From: a virus
Lineage: Duplodnaviria; Heunggongvirae; Uroviricota; Caudoviricetes
Length of the DNA: 10,978 bases
Virus record (IMG/VR): IMGVR_UViG_2639762982_000007
Direction: 5' to 3' (one strand)
Both the position numbers and the translations under genes were made by a program. The notes below the pieces were generated by a model. That model searched no databases and was not told the DNA's origin. It saw only the letters and a list, made by a program, of their open reading frames with translations. Shown piece after piece: positions 10,462-10,978 of this stretch (position 1 is the stretch's first letter; each line of letters starts with the position of its first letter).

Positions 10462-10600
10462 AAAAATTGATAAATTCAATACTGCATTTCTCAGCATTAA
10501 ATTTATCTCTATGACCAGTCAAGAGATGTACCTGCCATGAGCTTAATATCATGTCAGATATATCGGTCACAAACTCCCTCAGCAGCTAAGAGGAGGACAA

Positions 10601-10657
10601 ATGTCTCGACTAATCACTTTACAGGACTGGGCTAAAGAAGAATTTGGGGACTTAGCA
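10601..10657 (+). pseudogene. 5' remnant (19 codons) of an excisionase-like gene interrupted by IS10
   Basis: Strong AGGAGG ribosome-binding site at 10591..10596, ATG at 10601. MSRLITLQDWAKEEFGDLA resembles the Xis N-terminus (lambda Xis MYLTLQEWNA...). The reading frame then enters the IS10 terminus at 10658. Confidence 0.35.
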
Positions 10658-10978
10658 CTGATGAATCCCCTAATGATTTTGGTAAAAATCATTAAGTTAA
10701 GGTGGATACACATCTTGTCATATGATCAAATGGTTTCGCGAAAAATCAATAATCAGACAACAAGATGTGCGAACTCGATATTTTACACGACTCTCTTTAC
10801 CAATTCTGCCCCGAATTACACTTAAAACGACTCAACAGCTTAACGTTGGCTTGCCACGCCTTACTTGACTGTAAAACTCTCACTCTTACCGAACTTGGCC
10901 GTAACCTGCCAACCAAAGCGAGAACAAAACATAACATCAAACGAATCGACCGATTGTTAGGTAATCGTCACCTCCACA
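10658..10978 (+). mobile_element. IS10 (Tn10-type) insertion sequence, outside end and start of transposase; continues beyond window end
   Basis: CTGATGAATCCCCTAATGATTTTGGTAAAAATCATTAAG at 10658 matches the IS10 outside end. The preceding 9 bp GACTTAGCA (10649..10657) fits the IS10 target preference NGCTNAGCN at 5 of 6 specified positions. Confidence 0.9.
10765..10978 (+). CDS. IS10 transposase, N-terminal part (partial)
   Basis: Translation from ATG 10765: MCELDILHDSLYQFCPELHLKRLNSLTLACHALLDCKTLTLTELGRNLPTKARTKHNIKRIDRLLGNRHLH, matching the IS10 transposase N-terminus. The start is 108 nt from the IS end, as in IS10. Confidence 0.9.
   Translation, partial: MCELDILHDSLYQFCPELHLKRLNSLTLACHALLDCKTLTLTELGRNLPTKARTKHNIKRIDRLLGNRHLH

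Follow-up and report, generated by a model that had tools for sequence, protein, structure and literature searches.

An IS10-Right insertion in the phage 21-type xis gene of an icd-integrated lambdoid prophage of porcine ETEC O157:K88, at a site occupied by IS10 in other genomes

The window (the whole 10,978 bp stretch of DNA analysed here) ends within an IS10 element that cuts an excisionase gene (xis) after its 19th codon, and the full explanation that best accounts for this arrangement is very probably that a single 1329-bp IS10-Right transposed into xis of a lambdoid prophage integrated at icd. The exact position of the insertion would have been set by the target preference of IS10, and the same 9 bp within xis are occupied by IS10 in several other genomes, in both orientations and by both IS10-Right and IS10-Left.

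The window is the complete draft contig JPQX01000079.1 from assembly GCA_000835055.1 of E. coli O157:K88 strain 734/3, a porcine ETEC strain published by Wyrsch et al. 2015 (PMC4384309), whose genome paper makes no mention of IS10, of xis or of this prophage junction. Both contig ends are IS copies, with an IS1 fragment in reverse orientation at 1-481 on the left (terminus at 470-481) and IS10 at 10658-10978 on the right; the contig stops 321 bp into IS10, such that the far side of the insertion lies outside the window. Window positions 1-10658 are 100.0% identical to the chromosome of CV839-06, a strain from a diarrhoeic piglet, which has the same IS1 at the same place, and this IS1 is absent from ETEC1747 and ETEC1731, whose matches to the window start at position 482. 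The nearest complete copy of the prophage is that of CV839-06 (4012122-4055205), which is roughly 44 kb long and carries iss/bor and an ompC-like porin gene. We assign the window to a lambdoid prophage located at icd, with a phage 21-type xis-int module, in the porcine ETEC O157:K88 lineage.

An earlier note on this DNA had proposed that a gene with a very strong ribosome-binding site starts at 10601 and that its N-terminus resembles Xis, and both proposals hold. The Shine-Dalgarno motif AGGAGG can be read from the plus strand at 10591-10596, 4 nt upstream of an ATG at 10601-10603, and the 19 codons that follow (10601-10657, plus strand; MSRLITLQDWAKEEFGDLA) are identical to the N-terminus of the 78-residue excisionase WP_000088653.1, which is annotated in CV839-06. 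At the DNA level, the gene shares 95.9% identity with its phage 21 counterpart (M61865.1) and 99% or more with many lambda-like phages. The intact protein matches Pfam PF07825 (Exc, the lambda Xis family) over residues 5-73 with a score of 26.5 bits against a cut-off of 23, and aligns weakly with lambda Xis itself, at 21% identity and with ITLQDW against LTLQEW. An AlphaFold2 model of the intact Xis, built from 19 homologues, has strands at residues 4-6, 39-41 and 44-48 and helices at residues 7-18 and 22-30, with pLDDT of about 85 over residues 1-50. When this model was compared with the PDB using Foldseek, the six best matches were lambda and HK022 Xis, the best fold match having a target TM of up to 0.82 and an rmsd of 2.1 Å over 53 columns. 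The link to lambda Xis in the PDB was found by the fold search only, as PDB searches with the Xis sequence or with the 19-sequence profile gave just chance matches, for example to IgY Fc and thioredoxin. Sequence and the modelled winged-helix fold together identify the interrupted gene as a presumptive lambda-family excisionase of the phage 21 type.

The gene order of the uninterrupted locus is also that expected in the earlier note, with xis followed by int. In CV839-06, the xis reading frame continues uncut to 78 codons (4402-4638 of locus L003), and is followed by a tyrosine integrase gene, int (4628-5770), which overlaps xis by 11 nt and encodes Arm-DNA-bind_1 and Phage_integrase domains, and then directly by icd (5884-7134). 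Between the DUF4222 gene and xis, at about 10469-10507 of the window, AT-rich DNA forms an inverted repeat (about 16 pairs), for which a terminator-like structure on the minus strand was reported in CV839-06 (L003, 4270-4308).

The cut after codon 19 by the outside end of an IS10 element was described correctly. The outside end starts at 10658 with CTGATGAATCCCC... (in a longer reading of the same start, CTGATGAATCCCCTAATGATTTTGG...), and 10658-10978 of the plus strand, corresponding to nt 1-321 of 1329, is identical at 321/321 positions to the IS10R of Tn10 on R100 that lies beside tetD, a copy that we take, following the established Tn10 map, to be IS10-Right. Six diagnostic differences, at IS nt 24, 25, 27, 47, 83 and 107, distinguish it from IS10-Left. 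The element is a member of the IS4 family with the RefSeq name ISVsa5, and is oriented with its outside end toward the start of xis and its transposase gene co-directional with xis and int. The first 71 transposase codons occupy 10765-10977 on the plus strand, and the ATG (IS nt 108, position 10765) coincides with the start annotated for WP_001339197.1 on R100 and is also called as a gene. The antisense regulator of the transposase, RNA-OUT, is on the minus strand at 10703-10772 (Rfam RF00240; 98.8 bits against a cut-off of 41, full length 1-70); it is transcribed toward the xis stub and overlaps the transposase start. A GATC motif within IS10 at IS nt 67-70 (10724-10727) is known to be regulated by Dam. 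The prophage has an orphan Dam-type N6-adenine methyltransferase gene of its own at 9008-9565, and its presence near this GATC is probably a coincidence.

As a consequence of the junction, the reading frame that begins at the xis start codon now extends from 10601 to 10825 on the plus strand, and encodes a 74-residue product with residues 1-19 of Xis followed by 55 residues from the IS10 end. This frame crosses the transposase start in a different frame, and a Pfam scan of the fusion product gave no family match. In the model of the intact protein, the 19 residues that remain correspond to the short first strand and the first helix only, and the stub is predicted to be without the second helix, the beta-hairpin wing and the C-terminal tail; the corresponding parts of lambda Xis reportedly bind DNA and contact Int. 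A stub without these parts could therefore not provide a functional Xis. On the evidence of sequence and model, Xis is certainly destroyed.

The mechanism that we propose begins with insertion of IS10-Right at GACTTAGCA, codons 17-19 of xis, which would have duplicated the target. Xis would thus be reduced to 19 residues fused to 55 unrelated ones, leaving no functional Xis; at the same time, the 1.3-kb insertion would cut int off from the early-left transcripts that ordinarily continue through xis, such that read-through transcription of int would now have to cross the IS. In lambda-type systems both Int and Xis are required for excisive recombination, and excision that depends on the two should therefore be strongly reduced, with the prophage presumably being inherited as a fixed chromosomal segment. 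It is thus reasonable to suppose that the prophage is locked in place, as had been suggested.

In the orientation seen in the window, both pOUT and RNA-OUT are directed toward the xis stub and run antisense to the phage operon, and would therefore be unable to drive int. Downstream of the insertion, a search for promoters that could serve int returned a single weak match, which scored no higher than matches in shuffled sequences. For the predicted read-through transcript (10601-10840), the folding energy is -48 kcal/mol, compared with only -5 kcal/mol for an RNA-IN-like transcript, and in the predicted read-through RNA the transposase AUG is inside a long hairpin complementary to RNA-OUT. Fold-back inhibition is said to protect IS10 from outside promoters, and the predicted hairpin appears to be the classical form of this inhibition. 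Speculatively, the strongly translated xis stub could take ribosomes through the fold-back hairpin, in which case prophage induction could transiently activate IS10.

An alternative to consider, although we find it unlikely, is that the insertion is real and has little functional effect, either because the prophage was already defective or because it excises via Int alone or via the Xis of another prophage. In the prophage of CV839-06, an IS1 adjoins gene P, the lysozyme gene rrrD is interrupted by an IS3, and the tape-measure and J genes contain internal stops; the window starts inside that same IS1. Moreover, prophages of the Sakai strain can be excised without Xis, since Sp4 and Sp14, neither of which has a functional Xis, were still excised by Int alone (Asadulghani et al. 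2009, PMC2669165). However, the other lesions are known from the relative CV839-06, and the same insertion is found in two separately deposited assemblies, which fits stable inheritance. Furthermore, damage to lysis or tail genes leaves excision or curing possible, whereas it is excision that is affected by the loss of Xis in lambda xis mutants. The prophage may nonetheless be in decay, with IS10 having added a lesion to those already present instead of being 'the lock'. We also find unlikely a broader proposition, that the hotspot repeatedly immobilises lambdoid prophages at icd, with insertions being retained because fixation of the prophage benefits the host, and that it would thus constitute a recurrent, site-specific route of prophage domestication.

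Returning to a simple transposition of IS10-Right into xis, this arrangement predicts a reciprocal junction, and proteins deposited from the window's own genome provide information on it. The left-junction ORF is deposited as KIQ38753.1 (IY32_24890) and KIQ43802.1 (IY33_24425). An ORF for the right junction, MVTLWGNYEGISQ-DLA-PSERVLKK..., is composed of the IS10R inside end (the terminal sequence of which is ...GGGGATCTCTCAG), the second copy of the target, and Xis residues 20 onward, and is deposited as KIQ39542.1 and KIQ43944.1. The left- and right-junction accessions fall within the same two accession blocks, one per deposited assembly; these blocks indicate that the reciprocal junction is present in the window's own assembly, with the xis frame continuing beyond IS10. 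A simple IS10 insertion is thus indicated for both deposited assemblies, which presumably represent the two Australian O157 ETEC isolates from the same study.

The accessions also bear on whether the IS10 end is part of a composite Tn10, or is the product of an IS10-mediated deletion or inversion, such that IS10 would have neither the rest of xis nor int beside it. The window has only an outside end, as would be found at either Tn10 terminus, and porcine ETEC are often tetracycline resistant. With a Tn10, however, the other junction would be formed by the outside end of IS10-Left and have an ORF of the ...IHQDLAPS type, and KIQ39542.1 and KIQ43944.1 belong instead to the inside-end junction protein MVTLWGNYEGISQDLAPS...; in addition, strain CH4794 has exactly such a simple insertion. 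We consider this alternative very improbable, and reject a composite Tn10 on the inside-end type of the right-junction accessions, as judged from the accession blocks.

Complete genomes provide the full structure of insertions at this position. CH4794 (NZ_CM166349.1) and isolate 2-101 (NZ_CP053785.1) both have IS10 at the exact same site, in the window's orientation in CH4794 and in the opposite orientation in 2-101. The IS is 1329 bp long in both and has GACTTAGCA on each side; the rest of xis is in frame beyond the IS, followed by int and icd, and deletion in silico of the IS together with one repeat restores the 78-residue Xis. The second IS end, the 9-bp duplication, the remainder of xis in its original frame, and the adjoining int that were anticipated beyond the contig end are thus all found at the same site in these two strains. 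Their IS copies are both of the IS10R type, and differ from that of the window at IS nt 203.

Insertions at the same site are not limited to these genomes. An IMG/VR locus (L009) has IS10-Left, identical at 1329/1329 bases, in the opposite orientation with GACTTAGCA duplicated, and its upstream 2 kb is identical to the window. Further IS10R copies in the opposite orientation are in a second IMG/VR locus (L010) and in NLMS01000014.1 (L008), the latter in a variant xis allele, and a protein (P0060, MVTFWGNY...) has the inside end of an IS10L-type copy oriented as in the window. A target-site duplication flanking a 1329-bp IS10 is seen in CH4794, 2-101 and L009 (loci L001, L002 and L009). Four classes are therefore found at one site, with IS10-Right and IS10-Left each in both orientations, and the flanking int haplotypes differ among loci by 6-19 differences per 1400 nt. 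As an IS cannot flip or change type via recombination in its flanks, there were at least four independent insertions, and from this recurrence in sequenced genomes we take GACTTAGCA in phage 21-type xis to be a natural IS10 hotspot. In the opposite-orientation alleles (L002, 7758-9108, and L009), it is the remainder of xis and int that lie beyond the outside end and its outward-directed pOUT, and these alleles could have low constitutive expression of int without Xis.

It is highly improbable that the recurrence goes back to one insertion in an ancestor that recombining prophages then passed on, without any target hotspot. Lambdoid prophages are highly mosaic, and the window and CH4794 have a common orientation; but both orientations and both IS10-Right and IS10-Left are present, with the target duplicated separately in each case, and the presence of at least four orientation-and-variant classes at GACTTAGCA rejects a common origin. 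It is scarcely credible that the junction is an assembly chimera, produced where a repeat ended the contig, and this was likewise rejected, for although IS copies at both contig ends are typical of short-read assemblies, the break is exactly at the IS terminus adjoining a target-like 9-mer, and the identical junction recurs in a second assembly and in the closed chromosome of CH4794.

Insertion of IS10 at the xis site is nonetheless a rare event among complete E. coli genomes. The gene is carried by 1627 of 5426 such genomes, in 1625 of them at 99% identity or above (about 30%), and is uninterrupted in 1622 of the 1627 carriers and interrupted by IS10 in two. One of the five carriers without an uninterrupted xis is a CFT073 record with xis split in a different manner. 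Scans of genome and metagenome contig collections with the junction pattern found nothing, and a scan of viral contigs with the same pattern returned two loci. Among deposited proteins, those labelled 'excisionase, partial' (the cluster of P0001, members P0036-P0045) start at Xis residues 33-40 and come from tens of contigs, which suggests recurrent contig breaks elsewhere in xis, perhaps at a mosaic or repeat boundary common to prophages.

In view of the proposition that the 9 bp preceding the IS match the target preference of IS10, we compared GACTTAGCA (10649-10657, the left copy of the 9-bp duplication, encoding D-L-A in codons 17-19) with the known consensus sequences. IS10/Tn10 inserts at hotspots of the NGCTNAGCN type with a 9-bp duplication (Halling & Kleckner 1982, as quoted in PMC4574204), and a relaxed consensus, NPuCNNNGPyN, is quoted in the same article. 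The site matches the strict core NGCTNAGCN at 5/6 specified bases, the mismatch being in one half-site (ACT versus GCT), and fits the relaxed consensus in full. The proposed match therefore stands in its relaxed form and for five of the six core positions, but by itself it is weak and within chance, with 51 one-mismatch NGCTNAGCN sites among the 10,657 host bases of the window, compared with about 41 in shuffled sequences. Those host bases contain no perfect NGCTNAGCN site. The xis-int segment has six one-mismatch sites, and in xis the only one is GACTTAGCA. The site is meaningful because it has been used repeatedly in other genomes.

Several other features of the prophage were observed. Directly downstream of a cI-like S24 repressor gene (3861-4553), in the slot of lambda rexAB, are genes for an ImmA/IrrE-type metallopeptidase (379 residues, Peptidase_M78) and a DUF4411 protein (170 residues), together spanning 4683-6331. 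The metallopeptidase has weak PADLOC matches to capP/RmrA, and the pair could be a defence or accessory cassette. Between the DUF4411 gene and kilR there is a region of about 480 bp without a called gene (6332-6809), which could be the early-left promoter or regulatory region. An ORF within it (6347-6655) has no Pfam match, and no N-like gene was recognised in 6332-6809.

For strain 734/3, these observations mean that the icd prophage is probably unable to excise normally, in which case its cargo would be passed on vertically rather than being lost or transferred. A hotspot in a very widespread excisionase allele is a small, clean case of IS target preference channelling prophage decay. There is also a practical marker, as PCR across xis, with a product of 0.24 kb or 1.57 kb, would type the ETEC O157 lineage. 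Current understanding of IS10 and of Xis is unchanged. Our literature searches found no description of IS10 in an excisionase gene or in phage 21-type xis at icd; the insertion itself is of a textbook kind, and the new part, a natural IS10 hotspot in a widespread xis allele, is modest.

The closest known system for the interrupted module is that of phage 21 and e14 (M61865.1), which has the same icd target, the same xis-int-icd order and the same overlap of xis and int; the window differs in having xis split after codon 19, and the prophage is otherwise a different mosaic from phage 21, and combines a Rac-like YdaS/YdaT immunity region with the Red genes of lambda. The Xis proteins of lambda (1RH6, 2IEF, 1LX8) and HK022 (1PM6) have a common fold with the modelled protein (target TM about 0.8), although identity is only about 21% and the present Xis is 78 rather than 72 residues long with a different C-terminal tail. 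Relative to known IS10/Tn10 hotspots, the element sequence and the 9-bp duplication are the same, and GACTTAGCA has one perfect half-site, AGC, within its 5/6 match to the core; insertion in both orientations at GACTTAGCA is as expected from the symmetry of the target. IS-disrupted or 'grounded' prophages have been described, both in the O157 Sakai prophage pool (PMC2669165) and in review (PMC6379469), and there an IS or another mutation in the integration-excision module is one step in decay or domestication. The present case is no different in kind, and its only special point is that the exact same site has been hit repeatedly.
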